Source of the DNA: an uncultured Gammaproteobacteria bacterium
GTDB taxonomy: Bacteria; Patescibacteriota; Patescibacteriia; Patescibacteriales; CAZTIC01
Length of the DNA: 45,044 nt
NCBI GenBank assembly: GCA_964613625.1
Contig: CAZTIC010000002.1
Span: forward strand, 1-45,044
Direction of reading: 5' to 3'
Part shown: in pieces, positions 3,693 through 31,410 of the stretch
How the letters are laid out: each line of letters starts with the position of its first letter
Position numbering within the stretch: position 1 is the stretch's first letter
Program-made: the position numbers and the translations under genes
Notes under the pieces: model-generated
The model's input: only the letters and a program-made list of their open reading frames with translations
What the model was told of the DNA's origin: nothing
Databases searched by the model: none

Positions 3693-4711
3693 AAATTATC
3701 AATAAAATCTTTGGCTAATTTTTTGGAGGTAAGTTTTTCTTTATAAAGCTCATGGCCTTGTTTGGCTATTTTTTCAAGTATTTCTGGATTGTTTTTTAAA
3801 TGAAGAATTTTTTCAGCCAGTTTATTTGAATTTGCTGGCTCTACAGCTAGACAAGTTTCATTCTCTTTTAATAGTTCGAGAACTCCAGTGTTCCTAGCGG
3901 TGAGATAGGGGAGTTTGAGTGCTAGGCTTTCAAAAAGTTTGCAAGGAAGAGTTCTGGATAGCCTTGGATGATTTGCCATTTGTCCCAAGCTGATATGACA
4001 GGCTAGCATTTTTTCACGCAATTCTTTTTCTGAAAATCTTTTTGTTAATAGAGTAAAGTTTTTTGGTTTTAGCTTGTTCATTAGTTCATTATATTCTTTA
4101 TGCAGGAAACCTACGCCGATAACAAGAAAATCTATGTTCTTGTCTTCTAATAGCTTTGCTGTTTTTACTACTGTCAGGATTCCGGATTCTGGTAAGAATC
4201 TACCTCTAAAAAGAACGGTAAATTTATCCATTTTTTTTATATTATTATCTACAAAAAAAACTTTTTCGTTTACACCTGCCCAAGCGCGAATAAGTTTTTT
4301 TTTGGGCACAAAGAAAAGTTTGTGAACATAATCAATTTGAGAGTTGCTTTCTAGAAGTATTTTTGAAGATAGCCAAAACGAAATAAAATCTTTTAGCCAC
4401 CATGTAATTTTTTTGTTTATTCCTCTAGATACAACATTTGCTTCATATTGTGAATAACCACCATTATATACTATTTTTTTGAAGAAAATTAATCTAATAA
4501 TTGGCACAAAATGAGGGGATGCAAGACCTATAATGACAGTATCGTAAAAACGTCTTTGTGGCCAAAATTTTCTTATAATTTTTATATATTTTCCAATACC
4601 TTGGCCTTTTTCTTCCACTTCAAATACTTCGTGACCATTTTTTCTCAAACCGTCGATAAGATGTCTATTTTGAGGGTATGAATTATTTGTGCTTATATAA
4701 TAAAACTTCAT
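3689..4711 (-). CDS. Glycosyltransferase, GT4/GT1-like (GT-B fold)
   Basis: 340 aa. FTVLFRGRFLPESGI ... KLFESLALKLPYLTARNTGVLELL. The stop overlaps the start of the downstream split GT4 (ATGA). Confidence 0.7.
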   Translation of the reverse strand: MKFYYISTNNSYPQNRHLIDGLRKNGHEVFEVEEKGQGIGKYIKIIRKFWPQRRFYDTVIIGLASPHFVPIIRLIFFKKIVYNGGYSQYEANVVSRGINKKITWWLKDFISFWLSSKILLESNSQIDYVHKLFFVPKKKLIRAWAGVNEKVFFVDNNIKKMDKFTVLFRGRFLPESGILTVVKTAKLLEDKNIDFLVIGVGFLHKEYNELMNKLKPKNFTLLTKRFSEKELREKMLACHISLGQMANHPRLSRTLPCKLFESLALKLPYLTARNTGVLELLKENETCLAVEPANSNKLAEKILHLKNNPEILEKIAKQGHELYKEKLTSKKLAKDFIDNL

Positions 4712-4820: not shown

Positions 4821-5969
4821 ATGAAAAAAACTAAAAAATTATTTTTAATATTTCATGGGAGATTTCCGAGTGAAAAGGCGGCGTCTATATTTGTAGCAAA
4901 AAGCTGTGAAGCCTTTGCAGAAGAGGGTCTTGAAGTTGTTTTGCTTGTACCTAGGCGTATAGGTCGTTTTTCTGAAAATGCTTATGATTTTTATAATACA
5001 AAGAAAAATTACAAAATTATTTTTTTACCAACTATAGATTTGTTTTTTTTACGTATTTTTAAAAGTTTAGCTTTTAGATTGAGTTTAATTAGTTTTTCTT
5101 TTTTTTGTTTCGTGTATCTATTTTTAAAAGCTAATAAAAAAGATATTATTTACTCAAATGAAACATTGCCATTAATGTTGGCTTCGTATTTTTTCCAAAA
5201 TACATTTTATGAAATGCATGATTTTCCAGAAAAGAAATTATTTTTTTACAAAAAGTTATTTAAAAAACAAAGGTGGATTCTTGCTACTAATAGATGGAAG
5301 AAAGAAAAGTTAGAAAAAGATTTCAAAATAAATTCTGAAAAAATTATATATGAACCTAACGCTGTTGATTTGGAAGGTTTTGAAAATATTTCTAAGCTAA
5401 GTGCAAGGAAAAAGTTTAATCTGCCGTTAGAAAGGTTCACGGTAGTTTATGGCGGTCATTTATATGGTTGGAAGGGGGCTGATATTTTGGCAGAGGCAGT
5501 AAGTTATTTACCTAAAGACATATTGATTGTATTTGCTGGAGGAACATCTGAGGATACCAAGAACTTTAAAAAGAAATATTCTCACATTAAAAATATTATG
5601 ATTACAGGTTATGTTAGTCGTTCTGATATGTCTTATTGGCAAAAATTAGCTGATGTTTTAGTTTTGCCTAACACTGCTAAAGAAAAGATTTCTAAGTATT
5701 ATACTTCTCCTATGAAATTATTCGATTATATGGCCAGTGGTAATCCAATTGTTGCTTCTAACATCCCTTCGGTTTCTGAAATTGTAGATAATACGAACGC
5801 TATAATGTTTAGTCCAGATGATCCAAAAGATTTATCTGAAAAAATTATGTGGATTTTTGATAATCAAGAAAAAGCAAACATACTATCTGAAAAAGCATTA
5901 AAAGATGTAAAGAAACATTCTTGGCAAAATAGAGCAAAGAGGATAATAGAAATGTTTGATAATTTGTAG
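4821..5969 (+). CDS. Glycosyltransferase family 4
   Basis: 382 aa. GGHLYGWKGADILAEA ... SPMKLFDYMASGNPIVASN. Ends with TAG. Confidence 0.8.
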   Translation: MKKTKKLFLIFHGRFPSEKAASIFVAKSCEAFAEEGLEVVLLVPRRIGRFSENAYDFYNTKKNYKIIFLPTIDLFFLRIFKSLAFRLSLISFSFFCFVYLFLKANKKDIIYSNETLPLMLASYFFQNTFYEMHDFPEKKLFFYKKLFKKQRWILATNRWKKEKLEKDFKINSEKIIYEPNAVDLEGFENISKLSARKKFNLPLERFTVVYGGHLYGWKGADILAEAVSYLPKDILIVFAGGTSEDTKNFKKKYSHIKNIMITGYVSRSDMSYWQKLADVLVLPNTAKEKISKYYTSPMKLFDYMASGNPIVASNIPSVSEIVDNTNAIMFSPDDPKDLSEKIMWIFDNQEKANILSEKALKDVKKHSWQNRAKRIIEMFDNL

Positions 5970-22942: not shown

Positions 22943-24192
22943 TCTAAACGAGGACGTACTACTCCTGGGATTTTTTGGTTGAAGTCGTTTTTTCTGGAGT
23001 TCATAATATTATCAATAACATTAAATACGACAGCTTCTTGTTGTGAGAAGTGAATTTTAAGCGGCTTCATAGTTGATACAACAACTTGTGCTGTATAAGT
23101 GCCTTCGTTTAATAAATTTTCTGGAATCCACATAGTAGCGCGGTGTTTTCCTTTCACTCCTAATTTTTTATTATATTCTTCATGATTCATAAAAGCACGT
23201 TCACCTGTTGACGTGAAAATATGTATGTTTGGGATAGGAGTATATTCATTTTTTAATATTTCATATGTAAAATCTATTCCTATTTTTTTGTCTGCAGTAG
23301 TGAAAGGTATCTTATTATAATTTTCATCTATAATTCTAGCAGAATGAAGGATGGCGACATCATCTCCGGGAGCTTCTTCTTTTTTCCACTTTGTTTCTGT
23401 TCCTCGAGATCCTATTTCGGCAATATAGCGGTTTATTACTTTTTCTGTTTCATCAAACATAACAACCTTACCTTTTTCAAGAAGAATTGTTTTTTTACAA
23501 AGTCTCTGAATTGCCGCCATGTTGTGGCTTACAAAAAGAATTGTTCTACCTTCGGTTTTTGAGGTAGCATCTAATTTACCAAGAGATTTTTTTTGAAATT
23601 CTGCATCTCCTACAGCCAAAACTTCATCTACGACTAGAATATCTGGTTCCATGTGAGCCGCTACAGCAAAGGCTAGTCGAACATACATCCCAGATGAATA
23701 TCTTTTTACTGGAGTGTCTAAAAATTTTTCTATTCCAGAGAATTCTACGATATCATCAAAACGTTCAACTATTTCTTTTTTTGTCATTCCTAGAATTGCG
23801 CCATTAAGAAAAATATTTTCTCGACCCGAAAGCTCTGGGTGAAAACCGGTGCCAACTTCGAGTAATGAGGCAACACGACCATTTAATTTTATTTCTCCAG
23901 TCGTTGGGGGAGTGATTCTAGAAAGAATTTTTAGAAGAGTAGATTTTCCAGCACCATTTGATCCTATAATACCAATTATTTCACCTTTTTTAATCGTTAA
24001 GTTTACGTCTTTAAGTGCCCAGAATTCTTCTTTTTCTATTCTGCCTAATGCTTTTTTTGCTTTGTGCTTAGCATGTTTGAAAGGATTTTTTAATATATTT
24101 GTTATTACATCTCTTAGCGAAACATAACCACCACGTTGATGCGTGATGTTATATTTTTTTCCTACATTTTTTATTTCAATTGCGTTTTTCAT
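22921..24192 (-). CDS. wzt: Polysaccharide ABC exporter ATP-binding protein with C-terminal extension (Wzt/TagH type)
   Basis: Walker A GSNGAGKST, signature YSSGMYVRLAF, Walker B ILVVDE, plus about 170 extra C-terminal residues (beta-rich; Wzt C-terminal carbohydrate-binding-domain position). Confidence 0.85.
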   Translation of the reverse strand: MKNAIEIKNVGKKYNITHQRGGYVSLRDVITNILKNPFKHAKHKAKKALGRIEKEEFWALKDVNLTIKKGEIIGIIGSNGAGKSTLLKILSRITPPTTGEIKLNGRVASLLEVGTGFHPELSGRENIFLNGAILGMTKKEIVERFDDIVEFSGIEKFLDTPVKRYSSGMYVRLAFAVAAHMEPDILVVDEVLAVGDAEFQKKSLGKLDATSKTEGRTILFVSHNMAAIQRLCKKTILLEKGKVVMFDETEKVINRYIAEIGSRGTETKWKKEEAPGDDVAILHSARIIDENYNKIPFTTADKKIGIDFTYEILKNEYTPIPNIHIFTSTGERAFMNHEEYNKKLGVKGKHRATMWIPENLLNEGTYTAQVVVSTMKPLKIHFSQQEAVVFNVIDNIMNSRKNDFNQKIPGVVRPRLEWENILL

Positions 24193-24204
24193 ATATAAAA
24201 TTAT

Positions 24205-25023
24205 TTAAACGATATCAGCGAAATGTCGCTCTGTTTTTTTAAAAAATACTACACCTATTACAAGTAATATTAAAACAGCTATTAGGGAAATTCCGAGTAG
24301 CTCCCAGTTTATAGGGGCATTGCCAAAAAGAGCAGCCCGAGATGCTTTTATTACTCCTGTCATCGGATTCATGGCTAGTATCCAGGAGTATTTTCCTGCA
24401 ATACTTGCCGGGTATATTACAGGGGTTACAAAAAGCATCATCTGGATAAAATAAGGAAGAATATAACGAACATCTCGGTATTTAACGTTTACAGATGCTA
24501 AAAATAATCCACCGCCAACAGCTGCAATAAATGTTATTAAAAGTAATAATGGTAAAATTAAAATAATTATTAAATTAGGAACGAAATTATAATAAAACAT
24601 TAATCCTACAAGAATCAGTGAAGCGATACCAAAATCAACAAATTTAGTAACTATTCCTGAAATTGGCAAGATAAGTCTTGGGAAATATACTTTTGTTATT
24701 ATGCCAGCATTTCCAACCAATGAATTACTTGTTTCGGTAAGTGCGGTTGAGAAAAATTGCCAAAATAAAAGACCAGAGTAAACGAAGATTGGATAGGGAA
24801 TTCCGTCGGAAGGCATTTTTGCCAAGCCTCCAAAGAAAACACTAAAAACTACCATAGCCATGAAGGGTTGAAAAATTGCCCAAGCAACACCAACAAATGT
24901 TTGTTTGTATCTAACTTTGATATCTCTCCAAGCAAAAAAATATGCTAGTTCACGATATTGCCAGACTTCTTTGAAATCATTCCAGCTGAAAGTTTTTTTA
25001 GGTTTTATTACTATTGTTTTCAT
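24205..25023 (-). CDS. wzm: ABC-2 type polysaccharide exporter permease (Wzm/TagG type)
   Basis: 272 aa, about 6 TM segments. N-terminal YRELAYFFAWRDIKVRYKQTFVGVAWAIFQP is typical of ABC-2 permeases. Confidence 0.85.
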   Translation of the reverse strand: MKTIVIKPKKTFSWNDFKEVWQYRELAYFFAWRDIKVRYKQTFVGVAWAIFQPFMAMVVFSVFFGGLAKMPSDGIPYPIFVYSGLLFWQFFSTALTETSNSLVGNAGIITKVYFPRLILPISGIVTKFVDFGIASLILVGLMFYYNFVPNLIIILILPLLLLITFIAAVGGGLFLASVNVKYRDVRYILPYFIQMMLFVTPVIYPASIAGKYSWILAMNPMTGVIKASRAALFGNAPINWELLGISLIAVLILLVIGVVFFKKTERHFADIV

Positions 25024-25036
25024 ATTGTTTGTATAG

Positions 25037-25094
25037 TCTGTAAAGTTCTTAAAGTTACTTTATGACTTTATAGACTTTTGACTTTCTGACTTTA
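25037..25094. repeat. GACTTTA-family motif cluster forming an imperfect palindrome (site A)
   Basis: Left half TCTGTAAAGTTCTTAAAGTT. Right half GACTTTA ta GACTTTT GACTTTC t GACTTTA (25064-25094). The last unit overlaps the fcl stop codon. Confidence 0.65.
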
Positions 25095-26018
25095 TAAACT
25101 ATTCTTATACCATTTATAAGTATTTTTAATTCCGGTTTCTAAATCAATTTTATATTTCCAGCCAACTGTATGTATTTTATCAACATTTAATAATTTTCTA
25201 GGTGTGCCATTTGGTTTTGATGTATCCCATTTAATTTCACCTTTAAATTTAGTTTCTTTTTTAATAATTTCAGCTAATTTTTTAATAGTTATATCAATTC
25301 CAGTGCCGATATTTATTATTTCTGATTCGTTGTAATTTTTCATCAAAAATATACAGGCGTCAGCTAGATCATTAACATGAAGGAATTCTCGCTTGGGTTT
25401 CCCAGTACCCCAACACATTACTTCGCTATCGTTATTTATCTTAGCATCATGAAATTTTCTAATTAAAGCTGGCAGGGCATGAGACGATTTTAAATCAAAA
25501 TTATCATTTGGTCCATATAGGTTAGTCGGCATTACTGAAATAAAATTTGTTCCGTATTGCTTGTTGTATGATTCGCACATTGTCAAGCCTGCAATTTTGG
25601 CGATAGCATAGGATTTGTTAGTCGGCTCCAGTGGACCAGTTAATAAGTATTCTTCTTTTATGGGTTGGGGGGCATTTTTTGGATAAATACATGAACTGCC
25701 CAGAAATAATAATTTTTTTATATTATTTAAATAAGCATTATGAATAACGTTATTTTGTATTTGTAGATTTTCGTATATGTAATTAGCTGGATAATTTACG
25801 TTATCTATAATGCCTCCGACTTTTGCAGCAGCTAAAAAAATAAATTCTGGCGATTCATTTTTAAAAAATTTTGTCACAGCATTAAAGTCTAATAAATCGA
25901 GCTCAGCTCTTGTTCTGGTTATTATATTGGTGTAGCCAAGTTGTTTTAATGATCTTAGTATGGCGGAGCCAGCCATTCCTCGATGTCCGGCTATGAAAAT
26001 TTTTGAATTTTTTTGCAT
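25092..26018 (-). CDS. fcl: GDP-L-fucose synthase family (Fcl/WcaG; could be the GDP-colitose synthase ColC paralogue)
   Basis: IFIAGHRGMAGSA Rossmann motif, YAIAKIAG (YxxxK), NLYGPNDNF, CWGTGKPKREFLHVNDLA. The track ORF extends to 26084, but the ATG at 26018 (MQKNSKIFIAGH) avoids a 47-nt overlap. Confidence 0.8.
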   Translation of the reverse strand: MQKNSKIFIAGHRGMAGSAILRSLKQLGYTNIITRTRAELDLLDFNAVTKFFKNESPEFIFLAAAKVGGIIDNVNYPANYIYENLQIQNNVIHNAYLNNIKKLLFLGSSCIYPKNAPQPIKEEYLLTGPLEPTNKSYAIAKIAGLTMCESYNKQYGTNFISVMPTNLYGPNDNFDLKSSHALPALIRKFHDAKINNDSEVMCWGTGKPKREFLHVNDLADACIFLMKNYNESEIINIGTGIDITIKKLAEIIKKETKFKGEIKWDTSKPNGTPRKLLNVDKIHTVGWKYKIDLETGIKNTYKWYKNSL

Positions 26019-26037
26019 ATTGTTTTGTGATAATAAT

Positions 26038-26853
26038 TTATTGTTTATTGTTTTTGATTTTTTTACTCCAAAAAGAATCTCCAATTTCGGCTAATATTGA
26101 AGAATATTGATTTAATCTTTTTTGTTTAAGTTCTCTGTTGTTTTCTTCATAAAGTTTTTCACTTTCATCGTAGTCAAAGGAGACGGGGACTGAGGATATT
26201 TTTTTATTGTCAGAGTAGGCGTTAATTACCGGCTTAATAATTGAATCCCATTTGTCGAGATCACTTTTGTAGTTAAGGAAATATTGTGCGCCTGCTTTAT
26301 TGAACATTTTAGGGCCAAACCATAAATCATATATTTTATCTAGCTTATCAGAGGCTTTTTTGTTGGCTCTTGATTCTATCCATGATTGAAATTTTGGCAT
26401 TGAGTTTTTGTTTTTTCTTTCTGGTACAACTATGTCTGCATTTCCTTTTCTTAGGATATTTATCATGTCAGATATATTATTCTCGCAAAGTAGACTCCAT
26501 TTTTCTGGTTCTGCCCATAGGTAATTTGTTGGAGTATTATTTTGGGAAATTTTAATAGCTTCGTTGAGTGCGTGCCTGCGGCTTTCTCCCATGCTTAAAT
26601 CAGTTTTTTGTACTAGTTTAATATTTTCATACTCTTCTAGTTTATTTAAAAAAGAAGAATTTGATCCGCCGTCTATTACTACTGTCTTTATTTCAAGTTT
26701 ATCGGCATTTTCAAAAAATTTTAATGCAAGTTTTTCTCTTATTTTTGAAGTATCATCCTCTTTGTAGAAAGTTGTTGTGAAGATAATCAAATCATCAAAT
26801 TTTTCTTTTTTTTCTTGTTGTTCAATGCGTTTTTGAATCTCGAAATTTTCCAT
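26038..26853 (-). CDS. Hypothetical protein, possibly GT-A-like nucleotide-sugar enzyme
   Basis: 271 aa between gmd and fcl. IIFTTTFYKEDD ... KTVVIDGGSNSSF ... WAEPEK ... ADIVVPER looks Rossmann-like/GT-A-like, but I recognise no family. Confidence 0.4.
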   Translation of the reverse strand: MENFEIQKRIEQQEKKEKFDDLIIFTTTFYKEDDTSKIREKLALKFFENADKLEIKTVVIDGGSNSSFLNKLEEYENIKLVQKTDLSMGESRRHALNEAIKISQNNTPTNYLWAEPEKWSLLCENNISDMINILRKGNADIVVPERKNKNSMPKFQSWIESRANKKASDKLDKIYDLWFGPKMFNKAGAQYFLNYKSDLDKWDSIIKPVINAYSDNKKISSVPVSFDYDESEKLYEENNRELKQKRLNQYSSILAEIGDSFWSKKIKNNKQ

Positions 26854-26919
26854 ATTGTTAAATTAAAATTTTTACTCATCTAAAGCTTGCTTTGTTGAGG
26901 GTGTAGTTATTTCGGTTAG

Positions 26920-27978
26920 TTAATAGCCGTTATTTTTTAAATGCATTTCTTTTTCTGCTTCTTTCATGTCGCTTTCTATCATTTCTTTAACTAGTTCTTC
27001 AAAGGATATTTTGGTTTCCCAGCCGAGCTTTTCTTTTGCTTTTTTTGGATCACCTAGCAGGGAGTCAACTTCTGTTGGGCGGAAGTATTCTGGGTTTATT
27101 TCGATTATAGTTTCTTCTGTATCTTTGTTTATTCCTTTTTCATTAACTCCTTTTCCTTGCCATTCTATTGTGACGTCAATTTCTTTGAAGGCTACTTCAC
27201 AGAATTCTCTAACAGAGTATTGTTTTCCAGATGCTATTACAAAGTCTTGTGGCCTATCTTGTTGCATCATAAGATACATTGCCTCAACGTAGTCACGAGC
27301 ATGACCCCAGTCTCGTTTTGCATCTAGATTGCCGAGTTGGATTTTATCTTGAAGTCCAAGCTTGATTCTGCAAACTGCCCTAGTTACTTTTCTAGTAACA
27401 AAGGTTTCACCGCGACGAGGTGATTCATGATTAAAAAGAATTCCACTTACCGCAAATATATTATATGCTTCACGGTAGTTAATTGTAATCCAGTGAGAGT
27501 AAAGCTTGGCTACTCCATATGGGCTTCTAGGGTAGAATGGAGTATTTTCGTTTTGTGGTGGGGTAGAGGCACCAAACATTTCACTAGTTGAAGCTTGGTA
27601 AAAGCGTGTTTTCTTTTCGAGTCCTAGTATACGAATGGCTTCTAGAATTCGCAAGGCTCCAATAGCATCTGAGTTGGCAGTATATTCTGGAGTTTCAAAG
27701 GAAACTTTTACATGACTTTGTGCACCAAGATTGTATACCTCGTCTGGTTGAATTTTTTTTAGTAAGCCAACAATATTGGTTGAATCAGTTAAGTCTCCAT
27801 AATGTAAAATAAAGTTTCTGTTATTAATTTGCGGATCTTGATAAATGTGGTCGATACGAGCGGTATTAAAAGAAGAAGATCTTCTTTTTAATCCATGAAC
27901 TTCGTAGCCTTTTTTGAGTAATAATTCAGCCAGATATGAGCCATCTTGCCCGGTGATTCCTGTTATTAAAGCTTTCAT
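26920..27978 (-). CDS. gmd: GDP-mannose 4,6-dehydratase
   Basis: [70 protein letters not shown]. Confidence 0.92.
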
Positions 27979-27982
27979 AAAT

Positions 27983-28021
27983 TAGTCTTTAAAGTTAAAA
28001 GTTCATAAAGTCTATAAAGTT
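27983..28021. repeat. GACTTTA-family motifs in inverted orientation (site B)
   Basis: The plus strand reads TAGTCTTTAAAGTTAAAAGTTCATAAAGTCTATAAAGTT. CATAAAGTCTATAAAGT is the reverse complement of units in the 28383-28501 array. Confidence 0.6.
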
Positions 28022-28026
28022 TTGAT

Positions 28027-28371
28027 TTATAGAGTTTTTATGAAACCTGATATTAGTTTTGATATTTCAATGGATAAATTATTGAAATTTTTATAATTTT
28101 CATTATTTGTGTAATTTAGGGCTTGTGCTAAATACAGCATTGATCTTACTTCTCCGCATGAGCCTTTGGCAATAAAAAGAAAATATTTAAATTCTTTATC
28201 GCTTTTTCGCTCAAATCCTTCTGCAATATTATTCATTATTGACACAGACGCCCTTTGAATTTGATCTTTGAATCCAAAATCTTTACATCTATAAAATTCT
28301 TTATAAATATCTATTGTCATTGTTTTGGCTTTTTGCCAGGCGATAATATCTTCAAATTTTTCAATTTTCAT
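28027..28371 (-). CDS. Four-helix-bundle protein (23S rRNA intervening-sequence protein / Avd family)
   Basis: 114 aa. WQKAKTMTIDIYKEF ... QIQRASVSIMNNIAEGFERKSDKEFKYFLFIAKGSCGEVRSMLYLA is the family signature. Confidence 0.8.
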   Translation of the reverse strand: MKIEKFEDIIAWQKAKTMTIDIYKEFYRCKDFGFKDQIQRASVSIMNNIAEGFERKSDKEFKYFLFIAKGSCGEVRSMLYLAQALNYTNNENYKNFNNLSIEISKLISGFIKTL

Positions 28372-28382
28372 AAAATTAAGAT

Positions 28383-28501
28383 AACTTTAGACTTTATGGA
28401 CTTTAGACTTTAAGGACTTTATAGACTTTATAGACTTTATAGACTTTAGACTTTATAGACTTTAGACTTTATAGACTTTATAGACTTTATAGACTTTAGA
28501 C
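28383..28501 (+). repeat. Tandem heptamer array: 13 perfect GACTTTA units with 0- or 2-nt spacers
   Basis: Units start at 28390, 28399, 28406, 28415, 28424, 28433, 28442, 28449, 28458, 28465, 28474, 28483 and 28492. Spacers are tg, none, ag, ta, ta, ta, none, ta, none, ta, ta, ta. A degenerate AACTTTA precedes and a partial GAC follows. A higher-order 34-nt (9+9+9+7) block occurs twice. Confidence 0.95.
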
Positions 28502-28507
28502 TAATGC

Positions 28508-28765
28508 CTACCATTTGTTTATTTTATTAATAACCTTCTTTTTTATATTAAGATATGATTTAGTGGCTTCTTTTTCTACTTTAGGTGAAACTAATCGAAG
28601 TAGTTCTTTACCGAGAATACGATATTGACCACCTACTTTATTAGCCTTAATTAAGCCTTTTTTAAGCAGGCGCTTGATGGTGCTATTAGAAATCTTTAGA
28701 ATTTCTTGTGCTTCGTGGGTAGTATATATGGCATTTTGCTTTATTTCTTCATTTGTATTTTTCAT
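28508..28765 (-). CDS. Helix-turn-helix DNA-binding protein, excisionase/MerR-like family
   Basis: 85 aa. IYTTHEAQEILKISNSTIKRLLKKGLIKANKVGGQYRILGKELLRL. Confidence 0.7.
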   Translation of the reverse strand: MKNTNEEIKQNAIYTTHEAQEILKISNSTIKRLLKKGLIKANKVGGQYRILGKELLRLVSPKVEKEATKSYLNIKKKVINKINKW

Positions 28766-28772
28766 ATTATGA

Positions 28773-28800
28773 ATTATAACAAAGTGTCAAAAAGTGTCAA
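28773..28800 (-). promoter_or_regulatory. Consensus sigma-70-type promoter abutting the HTH start codon (leaderless layout)
   Basis: The minus strand reads TTGACA-cttt-TTGACA-cttt-gt-TATAAT-tcataat-ATG. Distal -35 at 28795-28800, 16-nt spacer, -10 at 28773-28778, 7 nt to ATG (28765). The plus strand shows AAAGTGTCAA twice in tandem (28781-28800). Confidence 0.55.
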
Positions 28801-28821
28801 TAGGTTTCAATGTAATAATTT

Positions 28822-28858
28822 AAAAAAGACAAAAATTTTTATATTTTGTCCTTTTTTT
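28822..28858 (-). terminator. Hairpin with flanking T/A runs downstream of the sugar transferase gene
   Basis: The minus strand reads GGACAAAA-tataaaaa-TTTTTGTC-TTTTTT. Lies 18-50 nt after the stop at 28876. Confidence 0.55.
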
Positions 28859-28875
28859 GGAATTAATTAAAAATA

Positions 28876-30231
28876 TTAAATTCCTCCCTTAGATAAAATA
28901 GTAGCTATAGTTTTTAGTATAATAGACAGGTCAAGATAAATTGATCTGTTTTTTATATAAAAGAGATCGTATTGTATTTTTTTCATAGTGTCTTCGTAGT
29001 TTGGAGAGTGATACTCGCCAGATATTTGGTCCCAGCCGGTGATACCAGGCTTTACTAATGTCCTCTCATTAAAGAATGGTATTTGTTTTTCTAGGGTTTC
29101 GGCGAGCTCAGGTCGTTCTGGTCTTGGTCCTACAAAACTCATTTCACCTTTTAGTATATTTATCATTTGAGTAAATTCATCAATTCTAGTTTTTCTCATA
29201 AAATTACCAACCTTGGTGGTGCGAGAATCATTATGCTCTGCTGGGTCAGGATTATTCTTGATAGTTTTTTGTGTACGAAATTTAATTAATCTAAAAATTT
29301 TTCCATTCTTGCCAACTCTTTTTTGAATGAAAAATATTGATTCTTTATTTTCAATTTTTAAAGCTAGCCCAATTATAATCCAAAATGGTAGAGTTATTAT
29401 AAATATCGCCAGAGCTAAAATAAAATCGTATGTTTTTTTTAGATAATCAAAAAACTTTTTATTGCCTTCGTTAAGGTTTTCTAGAAACCACATTTTGTTT
29501 ATTACGTTCACCGGTATTTTGCCTGTGATGTCTTCGTAGAATTTTGACAAGCCAACAAAGCTTGTTCCAAGTGAAAGACAATCGAACAGAATTGAACGAA
29601 GATTATTTGATTCACTAGGATCTTGAGCTAGAACTACGGTATTGATATTTTTTTTAGATATTAAATTTTTTAGATCATTTATATTGTCATAAATTGGCAA
29701 GCTAGAAATATTTTTATTTTCTTCATTTATCACAAAAGAGACAAAGTAGCCTAAGTGGGGCTTGTCTTTTAAAAATGTTATGAGCTCTTCTACTTGTTTA
29801 TTGTGTCCAATAAATGCAATATTTATTTTTGGAGCGTGCGTTTTGATCAAGTAGTTAAATAAATTTCTCCAGATAGAAAATAAAACAGCAAAGACAACGA
29901 TGAAGATAATTAAGTTTCTTTTCGGTGCGATATTTAGACTTGGGTTTAAATAGAAGTAAGCGGCTGAGAGAAGTCCAGAGATAATTAGAGTCTTAGTGAG
30001 CTTCTGATAAAAGCGAGAATTATTAACAGCGATGTTAATATTGTATAGATTGGTAATATAAAAAATGATCAACCAAAAAATAAAAATAAAAGAAAATGGA
30101 CCAAAATGGTTACTCCACAATCCTTCAGATGGGATACCTTGATATCTAATTAAAAGGGTTAAATATAAAGAGGTGTATAAAATCAAAATATCTCCAATAA
30201 GTAAAATAAATTTTTTAATTTTTATATTCAT
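28876..30231 (-). CDS. Polyprenyl-phosphate sugar-1-phosphate transferase (WbaP/EPS initiating 'bacterial sugar transferase')
   Basis: 451 aa with N-terminal TM block. C-terminal domain has FRLIKFRT, GEMSFVGPRPERPE, KPGITGWDQ. Confidence 0.85.
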   Translation of the reverse strand: MNIKIKKFILLIGDILILYTSLYLTLLIRYQGIPSEGLWSNHFGPFSFIFIFWLIIFYITNLYNINIAVNNSRFYQKLTKTLIISGLLSAAYFYLNPSLNIAPKRNLIIFIVVFAVLFSIWRNLFNYLIKTHAPKINIAFIGHNKQVEELITFLKDKPHLGYFVSFVINEENKNISSLPIYDNINDLKNLISKKNINTVVLAQDPSESNNLRSILFDCLSLGTSFVGLSKFYEDITGKIPVNVINKMWFLENLNEGNKKFFDYLKKTYDFILALAIFIITLPFWIIIGLALKIENKESIFFIQKRVGKNGKIFRLIKFRTQKTIKNNPDPAEHNDSRTTKVGNFMRKTRIDEFTQMINILKGEMSFVGPRPERPELAETLEKQIPFFNERTLVKPGITGWDQISGEYHSPNYEDTMKKIQYDLFYIKNRSIYLDLSIILKTIATILSKGGI

Positions 30232-30256
30232 GTAAATTATTGATAAATTTGTGTTT

Positions 30257-30285
30257 AATTTACCATCTTTTGGTCAAAAAATCAA
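30257..30285 (-). promoter_or_regulatory. Candidate promoter for the sugar transferase operon
   Basis: The minus strand reads TTGATT-17 nt-TAAATT, 25 nt upstream of ATG 30231. AT-rich background makes chance matches likely. Confidence 0.3.
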
Positions 30286-30307
30286 GTTTTTAGCTATTTA
30301 TAGCATA

Positions 30308-30336
30308 TTGATTGCTAATAACTATAATGTTATAAT
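30308..30336 (+). promoter_or_regulatory. Candidate promoter placing the transcription start at the holB ATG (leaderless layout)
   Basis: TTGATT (30308-30313), 17-nt spacer, TATAAT (30331-30336), then tttaac and ATG at 30343. A second TATAAT lies at 30323-30328. Confidence 0.45.
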
Positions 30337-30342
30337 TTTAAC

Positions 30343-31410
30343 ATGAATAAAGTATCCGAAAAGATAAAAATAAATTGGCCGTTTATAGGAAACGACAATA
30401 TAATAAAATATTTTTCTAGAAGTATAGCCAATGATAACGTATCAAGCTTTTATTTGTTTTTGGGTCCAAAAGATTTGGGAAAAACTACTTTAGCTATTCA
30501 TTTAGCCAAGATATTATTATGTCAAAGTAATCAGAAGTCAAATATCGTAATGCCATGCGAGGTTTGTCATTCTTGCAAAAAATTAGATTTGTATAGAACT
30601 AAAAAAGAAGATGATGGCCTGGATATACCTCATGGTGATTTTCACATTATCAAAAAAGAAAAAGACAAGAAAAATATCTCTATTGAGCAAGTTAGAGATT
30701 TTGTTAACAAAATAAACCTTAGTTCTTTTCTTGGAGGGTATAAAATTGGAATTATAAAAAATGCTGAGAGCTTGAGTAAAGAGGCATCGAATGCTTTACT
30801 CAAAACACTAGAAGAGCCAAAAGGTAAGGTAATGATAATAATGATTACTGATAATGAAGAGTATTTGCCAAAAACAATAATATCTCGCAGTCAAGTGATC
30901 AGATTTAGACCAGTAAACAAAAATATTATATATGATCATCTAATAAATAATTTTAAGGCATCTCGAAGTCGAGCTAAGAAATTATCCAGATTATCATTGG
31001 GCAAGCCGGCAATGTCAGTGAAATATTTTGAAGATCAGGATTTTTATAATCAATATTTAGATGAGATAAGATTTTTTTTGAATATAGTGAAAAGTAATGA
31101 TATTAATGAAAGATTGGAGATAGTGGGGAATTCAATTGGTAAAAGTATCTCAGGTCAAGAATTGGTTGAAAAAATAAAATTATTGCTAAATATTTGGCAA
31201 GGAGTGATTAGGGATCTATTGCTTCTTAATTATGATTTGGCAAATTTGATACAACATAATATAATAGAAGAAGATATTTATAAATTAAAAGAGACGTTTA
31301 ATCCAAATAGAGTGCTTAGAGTCTATAATATTTTTCAGAAAGGCAAAGAGTATTTAAATGCCAACGTTAATCCTAAATTTGTTATAGAAGGTGTTGTTAT
31401 TAATATATAA
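30343..31410 (+). CDS. holB: DNA polymerase III delta-prime subunit
   Basis: FYLFLGPKDLGKTTLAIHLAKILLC, zinc module CEVCHSC, ALLKTLEEP, TIISRSQVIRF. Confidence 0.8.
   Translation: MNKVSEKIKINWPFIGNDNIIKYFSRSIANDNVSSFYLFLGPKDLGKTTLAIHLAKILLCQSNQKSNIVMPCEVCHSCKKLDLYRTKKEDDGLDIPHGDFHIIKKEKDKKNISIEQVRDFVNKINLSSFLGGYKIGIIKNAESLSKEASNALLKTLEEPKGKVMIIMITDNEEYLPKTIISRSQVIRFRPVNKNIIYDHLINNFKASRSRAKKLSRLSLGKPAMSVKYFEDQDFYNQYLDEIRFFLNIVKSNDINERLEIVGNSIGKSISGQELVEKIKLLLNIWQGVIRDLLLLNYDLANLIQHNIIEEDIYKLKETFNPNRVLRVYNIFQKGKEYLNANVNPKFVIEGVVINI

Follow-up and report, generated by a model that had tools for sequence, protein, structure and literature searches.

Inverted arrays of the heptamer GACTTTA bracket a four-helix-bundle gene in a patescibacterial polysaccharide operon

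What is a long run of tandem heptamers doing in the spacer between two genes of a bacterial operon? In contig CAZTIC010000002.1 of an uncultured member of the Patescibacteria, the gap between a gene for a helix-turn-helix (HTH) protein and a gene for a four-helix-bundle protein of family PF05635 (4HB, used here for gene and protein alike) is filled almost completely by copies of GACTTTA. An original prediction, made from the letters of the window (the whole 45-kb stretch that was analysed, 29.8% G+C), offered three roles for this array: an operator array for the HTH protein, the partner in a structured RNA or a slippage-prone contingency tract. We show here that a 4HB cassette is delimited by a bracket of inverted tandem repeats, of which the array forms the long upstream arm, an arm being the tandem-heptamer array on one side of the gene. 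The inverted partner arm at 27981–28022 and a further pair at 25034–25094 had been missed.

The GACTTTA array is one arm of a bracket around the four-helix-bundle gene

An exact search located 13 perfect GACTTTA units on the plus strand at positions 28390–28498, the number originally counted, with successive spacings of 9, 7, 9, 9, 9, 9, 7, 9, 7, 9, 9 and 9 nt. The 34-nt block GACTTTATAGACTTTATAGACTTTATAGACTTTA (GACTTTATA three times, then GACTTTA) that had been described as occurring twice was recovered at 28415 and 28465, as were the 7- or 9-nt spacings, and Tandem Repeats Finder returned periods of 9 nt with 13 copies (score 159) and of 59 nt with 1.9 copies. At its full extent the array runs from a degenerate AACTTTA (28383–28389) to a truncated terminal GACTAAT (28499–28505); it begins 3 nt past the HTH stop codon, ends 11 nt short of the 4HB start and occupies 123 of the 136 nt of the spacer, in agreement with the earlier statement that it nearly fills this gap. 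GACTTTA occurs 19 times on the two strands of the whole window compared with 8.4 expected, and the array is real and far beyond chance. It is no assembly artefact, because an independent assembly from a different ENA sample (contig L203) matches the window at 99.77% identity along 9386 nt and has an identical array of 14 units. The array was also said to hold no open reading frame (ORF), and it has no credible one, although a mechanically called ORF of 52 aa (28255–28413, plus strand) does overlap it. A CRISPR array was ruled out: the units are 7 nt long with 0 or 2 nt between them, versus repeats of ∼23–50 nt with unique spacers. A search of Rfam at E ≤ 1 over positions 24000–30500 returned only a chance match to Esr41 and no rRNA match. 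As an intergenic run of head-to-tail heptamers, variable in number and often found as convergent pairs, the array fits the class of repeats resembling the STRR (short tandemly repeated repetitive) sequences (class in PMC4692102, PMC4679880).

Clusters of ACTTT or AAAGT are present at three places only in the 45 kb, all of them spacers of one minus-strand polysaccharide operon (in order: sugar transferase, HTH, 4HB, gmd, an ORF without a Pfam match, fcl, wzm, wzt, glycosyltransferase), and two of the three bracket the 4HB gene in inverted orientation (Table 1). Read on the minus strand, the layout is ATTAGTC-(TAAAGTC)n, the ORF, and (RACTTT)4-GACTAAT, the GACTAAT of the downstream arm mirroring the ATTAGTC at the outer end of the upstream arm. 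The whole element measures 525 nt and sits between the HTH_17 gene and gmd, not inside an rRNA gene. In the second, gene-less element, the last unit overlaps the fcl stop codon; this element is identical in L203.

To see whether the bracket belongs to the gene, we turned to 80 metagenome loci that were picked solely by the similarity of their 4HB protein (62–75% identity). Arms were sought within 100 nt, and 74 of these protein-selected loci had at least 60 nt on both sides. At least two AAAGT upstream together with at least two ACTTT downstream were found in 63 of the 74 and at least three units on both sides in 46, whereas, of 868 control windows taken from these loci, no more than 0.9% and 0.5% reached three units. 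The reverse arrangement of arms was seen once. The outermost unit is typically truncated, to nAGTY on the left (45 of 60 loci) and to RACTn on the right (51 of 64). In 36 of the 80 loci the first ACTTT core starts 2–3 nt past the opening base of the 4HB stop codon, which places the stop codon within the first downstream unit (TAA-ACTTT, TAG-ACTTT). The general form of the bracket is TAGTY-(AAAGTY)n, PF05635 gene, (RACTTT)n-RACTA. The shared bracket, the truncated ends and the stop codon inside a repeat unit indicate that the gene and its arms are one integrated unit.

Arms typically comprise three to five units, with medians of four upstream and three downstream; the tendency of the upstream arm to be the longer is marginal (4.2 versus 3.1 units, P = 0.057). 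Since only 2 of 71 upstream arms reach 14 units, the arm in the window is an expanded extreme. The 4HB gene is co-oriented with both of its neighbours in 32 of 38 informative loci, which fits expression by read-through transcription. Most metagenome contigs with close 4HB homologues are very short (many < 2 kb), and in two of them, L001 and L002, the contig stops inside an array. Short-read assemblies evidently break at the arrays, and the cassettes are therefore probably under-represented in metagenome-assembled genomes.

Table 1. Coordinates of the cassette, the gene-less element and neighbouring features in the window
Feature	Position	Strand	Description
Whole element	27981..28505	-	both arms and 4HB gene
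Upstream arm	28383..28505	-	ATTAGTC-(TAAAGTC, 0- or 2-nt spacers) x13-TAAAGTT on the minus strand; upstream in the 4HB sense
4HB gene	28027..28371	-	114 aa; Pfam PF05635 E = 6.8e-35, TIGR02436 E = 3.2e-33
Downstream arm	27981..28022	-	AACTTTATAGACTTTATGAACTTTTAACTTTAAAGACTAAT on the minus strand: four ACTTT units and terminal GACTAAT
Second, gene-less element	25034..25094	-	fcl-wzm spacer; two AAAGT then five ACTTT; termini TAGTC...GACTT
HTH_17 gene, excisionase-type	28508..28765	-	upstream neighbour of the array
Sigma-70 promoter	28800->28773	-	upstream of HTH_17; 12/12; TTGACA, 16 nt, TATAAT, TG (extended -10)
wzm-wzt spacer	24193..24204		12 nt, empty
ORF of 271 aa	26038..26853	-	between gmd and fcl; no Pfam match

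The arrays thus go with the 4HB gene, bracketed in those 63 loci, and not with the HTH gene. Operators often consist of short repeats in tandem, and the array does adjoin the HTH gene in the window, in L001 and in L203. However, an HTH_17 gene was present in only 3 of the 80 protein-selected loci and never as the adjacent upstream gene, arrays occur in many phyla without it, and in the window the array lies downstream of the HTH gene and at no promoter. That the array serves as an operator for the excisionase-type HTH protein, as first suggested, is therefore highly improbable. The HTH gene instead has TTGACAC repeats of its own on the perfect sigma-70 promoter listed in Table 1: the conserved direct repeat TTGACACnTTTTGACAC overlaps this promoter, as does the direct repeat TTGACACTTTTTGACAC, and Tandem Repeats Finder reports AAAGTGTCAA in two copies at 28781–28800. 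TTGACAC repeats likewise precede the HTH_17 genes of L127 and L132. They are a far better operator candidate than the GACTTTA array, and the repeat and promoter probably constitute an autoregulatory operator of the HTH gene and an internal promoter for HTH, 4HB and gmd. No terminator was predicted from this promoter through the cassette; the array contains no promoter-like site on the minus strand, and no promoter spans it.

Gene-less copies, mobility and unit number

A second set of loci was selected by the array itself. Searching one-genome-per-species contigs for three GACTTTA units separated by 0–2 nt gave at least 120 stretches, compared with 2–18 predicted by composition. Among the matches listed, most hosts belong to the Bacteroidota and Patescibacteria and a smaller share to the Chloroflexi, Acidobacteria, Planctomycetes, Chlamydiae and Proteobacteria; across these array-selected loci the core heptamer is constant, whereas the spacer can be 0, 1 or 2 nt long. 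Convergent pairs, in which (TAAAGTC)n precedes (GACTTTA)n, are frequent among the arrays. The inner distance in 24 such pairs was ≤60 nt in 19 and 363–452 nt in 5, with none between, and four of the five wide pairs, including that of L066, hold a 4HB gene. One pair of reverse polarity was seen. A hairpin was predicted for all 15 gene-less pairs tested (z = −3.6 to −12.3), and for the gene-less element of the window the z-score was −4.2 with DNA parameters and −2.0 with RNA parameters. Arrays that at first look solitary are often accompanied by a short, degenerate partner, and their ends are likewise TAGTC/GACTA. The proposition that every GACTTTA array adjoins a 4HB gene is false, there being ∼9 4HB genes in 120 array-selected loci; most of these arrays are gene-less hairpins or apparently solo arms. 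The gene-less hairpin is the majority form and the 4HB-bearing cassette the minority, and the window has one of each. Both forms occupy operon spacers in Patescibacteria, Bacteroidota and other phyla, the cassette usually in the orientation of the host genes.

Could the heptamers be roleless products of slippage that stand beside 4HB genes by chance? Heptamer repeats are over-represented in bacteria, an excess that has been ascribed to polymerase slippage (PMC4692102). Against such a neutral microsatellite, the same core, orientation and truncated end recur at 63 of 74 homologous genes versus <1% of control windows, the two arms of a cassette co-vary (see below) and the triple unit exceeds its compositional expectation as described above. 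We give this explanation very little credence.

Comparison of related loci showed that the cassette comes and goes. In L001 and L002, which represent the same locus in other assemblies, the 4HB ORF is identical to that of the window at 343/345 and 345/345 positions and the downstream arm at 30/30 and 47/48, respectively; identity falls to 89.7% in the HTH gene and to 87% at the start of gmd. The wzm–wzt junction, empty in the window, holds a full cassette in L123 and L152, where the terminal unit includes the stop codon of one host gene and the last units include a host start codon. At the fcl–wzm junction, the gene-less hairpin of the window is matched by a full 4HB cassette in L124 and L127. 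Its presence or absence at homologous junctions, and its conservation beyond that of its flanks, indicate that the cassette is a discrete, horizontally moving selfish element.

The upstream arm at the orthologous site has 4 units in L001 and L002 versus 14 in the window and in L203, and single-unit differences separate near-identical loci (L146 from L148, L189 from L190). Unit number therefore varies between strains, as the original prediction had envisaged, while being the same in the 99.77%-identical contig; it changes quickly, most simply via replication slippage. The further proposal that slippage switches or tunes the 4HB gene or the downstream polysaccharide genes draws on this variability (14 versus 4; ±1), on the location in a surface-polysaccharide operon and on the strain-variable heptamers of a related element in Coxiella (see below). 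A contingency switch is nevertheless unsupported, because the tract is located outside any reading frame and outside any promoter spacer; the same arrays also flank 4HB genes in unrelated operons (ribosomal, cas, nrd, ABC transporter), and two 99.8%-identical strains have identical arrays. We consider this role quite unlikely. Overall, the original interpretation was partly right: it erred in proposing an HTH operator and was correct in proposing a pairing partner and variation in length.

Some other loci have additional features. The gene-less hairpin at 2497–2608 of L051 (z = −12.3) carries in its loop a second, perfect G+C-rich hairpin (ACAGGGGGTGGCC...GGCCACCCCCTGT), which represents a nested element or else a terminator that the loop has captured. 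In L099 (7320–7882), a convergent AAAGT/ACTTT pair surrounds ∼390 nt of G+C-rich DNA without 4HB similarity and is followed by a reverse-polarity pair. The chromosome of Pirellulaceae SH501 (L010) has two copies, at 4060–4350 and 5650–5930, of a conserved stretch of at least 130 nt that ends in (TAAAGTC)n and is followed in both cases by CTAAGGT units and then by a G+C-rich repeat of ∼26 nt; these copies look like a larger composite repeat family in this planctomycete.

Predicted pairing of the arms and the nature of the element

The inverted orientation of the arms raises the possibility that they pair. The minus-strand transcript of 28510–27975 was predicted to fold with a long-range stem that closes the 4HB ORF, at −110.2 kcal/mol compared with −81.8 ± 5.8 kcal/mol for shuffled sequences (z = −4.9). 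The duplex of the two window arms comprises 33 bp with small internal loops. Arms from the same cassette formed more stable duplexes than arms from different cassettes (means of −34.9 versus −29.5 kcal/mol, n = 63, permutation P < 1e-4). The structured-RNA partner that had been suggested thus finds its counterpart in the inverted array beyond the 4HB gene and in the fold of the transcript, but pairing is strand-symmetric and may also take place in DNA.

The closest known relative of the element is the intervening sequence (IVS) of the Coxiella 23S rRNA; the 4HB protein family owes its name to such sequences. In C. burnetii this is a 428-nt selfish, horizontally acquired element in helix 45 of the 23S rRNA, with an S23p ORF and, directly upstream of it, two to three strain-variable tandem heptamers (GACAGAT); its excision by RNase III has been demonstrated, the 5′ cut falling at the first heptamer (PMC4990558). 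Like the IVSs of Coxiella, Leptospira and others, the element studied here encloses a PF05635 cargo ORF in terminal inverted repeats that form a stem. Strain-variable heptamers stand directly upstream of the ORF in both (2 versus 3 in Coxiella, 14 versus 4 here), and the sizes are comparable (∼430 and 525 nt). The two differ in that the Coxiella IVS interrupts an rRNA helix whereas our element lies between protein-coding genes of a polysaccharide operon, and in that the arms here are nearly all tandem heptamers (up to 14 units) whereas Coxiella has a unique 28-bp stem with 2–3 heptamers. Furthermore, the ORF is intact and conserved here, whereas that of Coxiella is decaying and probably untranslated, and RNase III excision, established by experiment in Coxiella, is for the present element a presumption by analogy. 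The element is thus an IVS-type 4HB element of operon spacers whose arms are built of tandem heptamers.

On balance, we think it probable that a selfish 4HB cassette, delimited by inverted heptamer arms, is removed from operon RNA by RNase III in the manner of an IVS. A read-through transcript would start at the promoter upstream of the HTH gene, and the arms would pair within it, enclosing the 4HB ORF by a stem of ∼30 bp. Such a stem would be a substrate of the double-strand-specific RNase III, which would cut the insertion out of the polycistronic RNA; the element could be tolerated between the genes of its host operon because the insertion would be removed in this way. The heptamers may additionally be recognition sites for the encoded, probably pentameric, 4HB protein.

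Several observations weigh against this explanation. RNase III excision is proposed here by analogy with Coxiella. The strand that pairs better was the sense strand in 31 cassettes and the antisense strand in 29 (Wilcoxon P = 0.86), and the window arms themselves pair better in antisense (−41.9 kcal/mol) than in sense (−37.4 kcal/mol); with such strand symmetry, the data do not separate RNA from DNA pairing. The arms of the window are very unequal (14 versus 4 units) and their spacers are not mirrored, so that most of the array must lie outside the stem. That the arms co-vary need not be due to selection for pairing, since common descent or a binding protein shared by both arms could have the same effect. 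Arms were weak or atypical in ∼11 of the 74 homologous loci, and in Pseudanabaena galeata (L208, 260–900) the 4HB gene has direct instead of inverted arrays, with (CTAAAAG)x15 on its upstream side and (CCAAAAG)x10 on its downstream side. As for mobility, the cassette encodes no mobilising enzyme, and no target-site duplication was established from the flanking bases: the base outside the ends is T on the left in 21 of 45 cases and A on the right in 27 of 51, which is compatible with a TA duplication but inconsistent, and there was no close empty site.

Protein and repeat agree across phyla. The patescibacterial protein of the window is 72% identical to GACTTTA-flanked proteins of a Bacteroidales (L047) and a Rikenellaceae (L025) member; the figure is 68% for the proteins of L102 and L075 and 59% for that of L066. 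Paralogs with other heptamers on the same Bacteroidetes contigs, by contrast, are 31–46% identical to the GACTTTA-flanked proteins, and the 4HB proteins of L045b and Riemerella (55% identity) share AAGGTT-type units. As judged from these sequence comparisons, the agreement would fit either a cassette that moves between phyla as a unit or co-evolution of protein and repeat. In L066 (3823–4335), conserved positions of the 4HB ORF are occupied by four in-frame TGA codons (as in AE*FER, which reads AEGFER in other family members); this points to a host with genetic code 25 (TGA = Gly) and thus to the presence of the cassette in such lineages too.

Such agreement is also what a protein–repeat system on DNA would produce, in the manner of REP (repetitive extragenic palindromic) sequences or REPINs and their associated tyrosine transposases (RAYTs). 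The heptamers would then be recognition sites for a 4HB oligomer, the arms terminal inverted repeats for upkeep or spread of the element as hairpin or duplex DNA, and the gene-less hairpins non-autonomous copies; RNA processing would be incidental. We regard this alternative as possible but clearly the less likely, and it is compatible with IVS-like excision. With REP/RAYT systems the element shares dispersed intergenic palindromic repeats that are mostly gene-less hairpin doublets (here 19 pairs in the 120 array-selected loci), an associated gene flanked by inverted repeats (here 63 of 74) and a gene lineage that tracks the repeat sequence. It differs in that the 4HB protein, at 114 aa, has no similarity to tyrosine (Y1/HUH) transposases of the IS200/IS605 type, in its variable number of tandem heptamers versus a single palindrome of 20–40 nt, and in that the 4HB gene is multi-copy in many genomes.

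The link between protein subfamily and repeat unit, which holds across phyla, differs between paralogs on one contig and extends to related units in related proteins, argues for recognition on DNA, as do the strand-symmetric complementarity, the defined ends and the predominance of gene-less over gene-bearing pairs in array-selected loci (19 versus 5). A 4HB gene of Xanthomonas campestris, XCC0516, abuts an array of a repeat dispersed through that genome (see below). In addition, 4HB proteins are basic (median pI 9.0), both solved relatives (2GSC and 2RLD) were deposited with five chains, and arms typically have three to five units. On the other hand, binding has been shown for no family member outside the diversity-generating retroelements (DGRs), the 4HB protein matches no recombinase, nuclease or transposase family, the variable spacing of 7, 8 or 9 nt argues against phased binding to duplex DNA, and the missing target-site duplication counts against this alternative as well. 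The protein–repeat correlation is, moreover, equally explained by a cassette moving as a unit.

Other elements are less similar. Gene-less copies resemble MITEs, the miniature inverted-repeat transposable elements, in being small and intergenic, in having terminal inverted repeats and in being present or absent between genomes; they differ from MITEs in that no autonomous transposase-encoding partner is known and in that their arms are internally tandem-repetitive. A homologous four-helix-bundle fold is found in Avd, the accessory protein of DGRs, a basic pentamer that acts jointly with the reverse transcriptase in binding nucleic acid. Avd genes, however, are not described as heptamer-bracketed, and no reverse transcriptase, template repeat or variable repeat adjoins the window 4HB gene. 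PF05635 is the commonest Pfam family beside DGR reverse transcriptases (PMC10053308).

Heptamer arrays across the PF05635 family

At least ∼8000 homologues of the window 4HB protein were scored, mostly from Patescibacteria. PF05635 was the sole Pfam match of the window protein even at E ≤ 10, with no recombinase, nuclease or transposase family among the results, and comparisons with PADLOC and PHROG gave no match. We accordingly rejected kinship with HEPN or other nucleases, for which no second Pfam family and no paper was found, and a role as a defence-system or phage protein.

Among more distant, plasmid-borne PF05635 members of cultured organisms, 9 of 12 are bracketed by inverted tandem arrays whose units are specific to the lineage: GGGAAAA/TTTTCCC in Nostoc ATCC 53789, AAGGTTY/RAACCTT in Riemerella, GGTGACA/TGTCACC in Anabaena 90, AGGAGTC/GACTCCT in N. 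punctiforme, Nostoc C052 and Aulosira, GTAGGGA/TCCCTAC in N. edaphicum, a GACAGAG-type unit in Azospirillum and GGAGATA/TATCTCC in Picosynechococcus. The remaining three comprise the direct arrays of Pseudanabaena and two members without a clear arrangement. Three 4HB cassettes lie within cas operons, namely those of Anabaena sp. 90 pANA02 (L206), Pseudanabaena pPg_01 (L208) and a plasmid of Picosynechococcus PCC 7003 (L213); the insertion sites are cas6–cas4 and cas10–cmr3. A domain termed '23S rRNA IVP' has been listed among CRISPR-associated domains (PMC10910872). Cassettes in cas operons may explain this association without a functional role in CRISPR.

Tandem heptamers reportedly include the cyanobacterial STRR sequences of Mazel et al. 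1990. With these, and with the repeats GGGAATC, GGGGAYT and TAACTGA and the Geobacter sites described below, the element shares an intergenic position, a variable number of units from a few to ∼15, frequent convergent pairing on opposite strands and a patchy spread across phyla; moreover, STRR-like heptamers bracket cyanobacterial 4HB genes. Published examples are the tandem heptamers GGGAATC of Xanthomonas and GGGGAYT of Nostoc (PMC4692102), TAACTGA of Beggiatoaceae, cyanobacteria and Bacteroidetes (PMC4679880) and the paired hepta/octanucleotide sites of Geobacter metallireducens (PMC2700814), and the over-representation of heptamer tandem repeats in bacteria is functionally unexplained (PMC4692102, PMC4679880, PMC2700814). 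In X. campestris ATCC 33913, a GGGAATC-type array lies between bccP (XCC0517) and XCC0516 and overlaps the annotated start of XCC0516 (Rehm et al., PMC4692102), whose product we recognised as the 4HB protein of PDB entry 2GSC. That genome has 186 GGGAATC-type repeats, 70 of them as convergent pairs, and no tie to XCC0516 was made (PMC4692102).

None of these heptamer-repeat papers mentions a 4HB gene. A connection of the Geobacter sites to 4HB genes was considered and set aside, as the neighbours given in the supplement are IS110/IS481 transposases and assorted genes and no 4HB link was verified. In the literature searched, no paper describes heptamers that flank genes of PF05635, 'S23 ribosomal protein' or 'four helix bundle protein', and the GACTTTA unit is absent, motif words having matched nothing but primer sequences from unrelated work on eukaryotes. 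That heptamer arrays accompany PF05635 genes throughout the family appears to be unreported.

These results raise the possibility, which we put forward tentatively, that PF05635 proteins and inverted heptamer arrays form a widespread two-component selfish system in which each subfamily recognises its own heptamer, the IVS being the best-known special case and hairpins lying behind much of the heptamer excess. The heptamer recognised would be GACTTTA for the window protein, GGGAATC for that of Xanthomonas, an STRR-like unit for those of cyanobacteria and GACAGAT for that of the Coxiella IVS. Three puzzles would possibly be one: the function of the very large 4HB or 'S23 ribosomal protein' family, among whose members only two, both uncharacterised entries from structural genomics, have been solved, the nature of rRNA IVSs, and the over-representation of heptamers such as STRR, GGGAATC and TAACTGA. 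If the bracket is general, it provides a concrete, testable protein–repeat pairing and makes the old heptamer question accessible to experiment. It would also explain why 4HB genes occur in unrelated operons, including cas operons, where they may inflate scores of 'CRISPR association', and why metagenome assemblies break around 4HB genes, and it would supply an annotation rule for common intergenic insertions in Patescibacteria and Bacteroidota.

A minor point concerns the operon of the window downstream of the cassette. The mechanically called fcl ORF, with a TTG start at 26084, overlaps the 271-aa ORF listed in Table 1. In L203, the gene call for fcl is 308 aa, indicating that the overlap is a product of the ORF finder.

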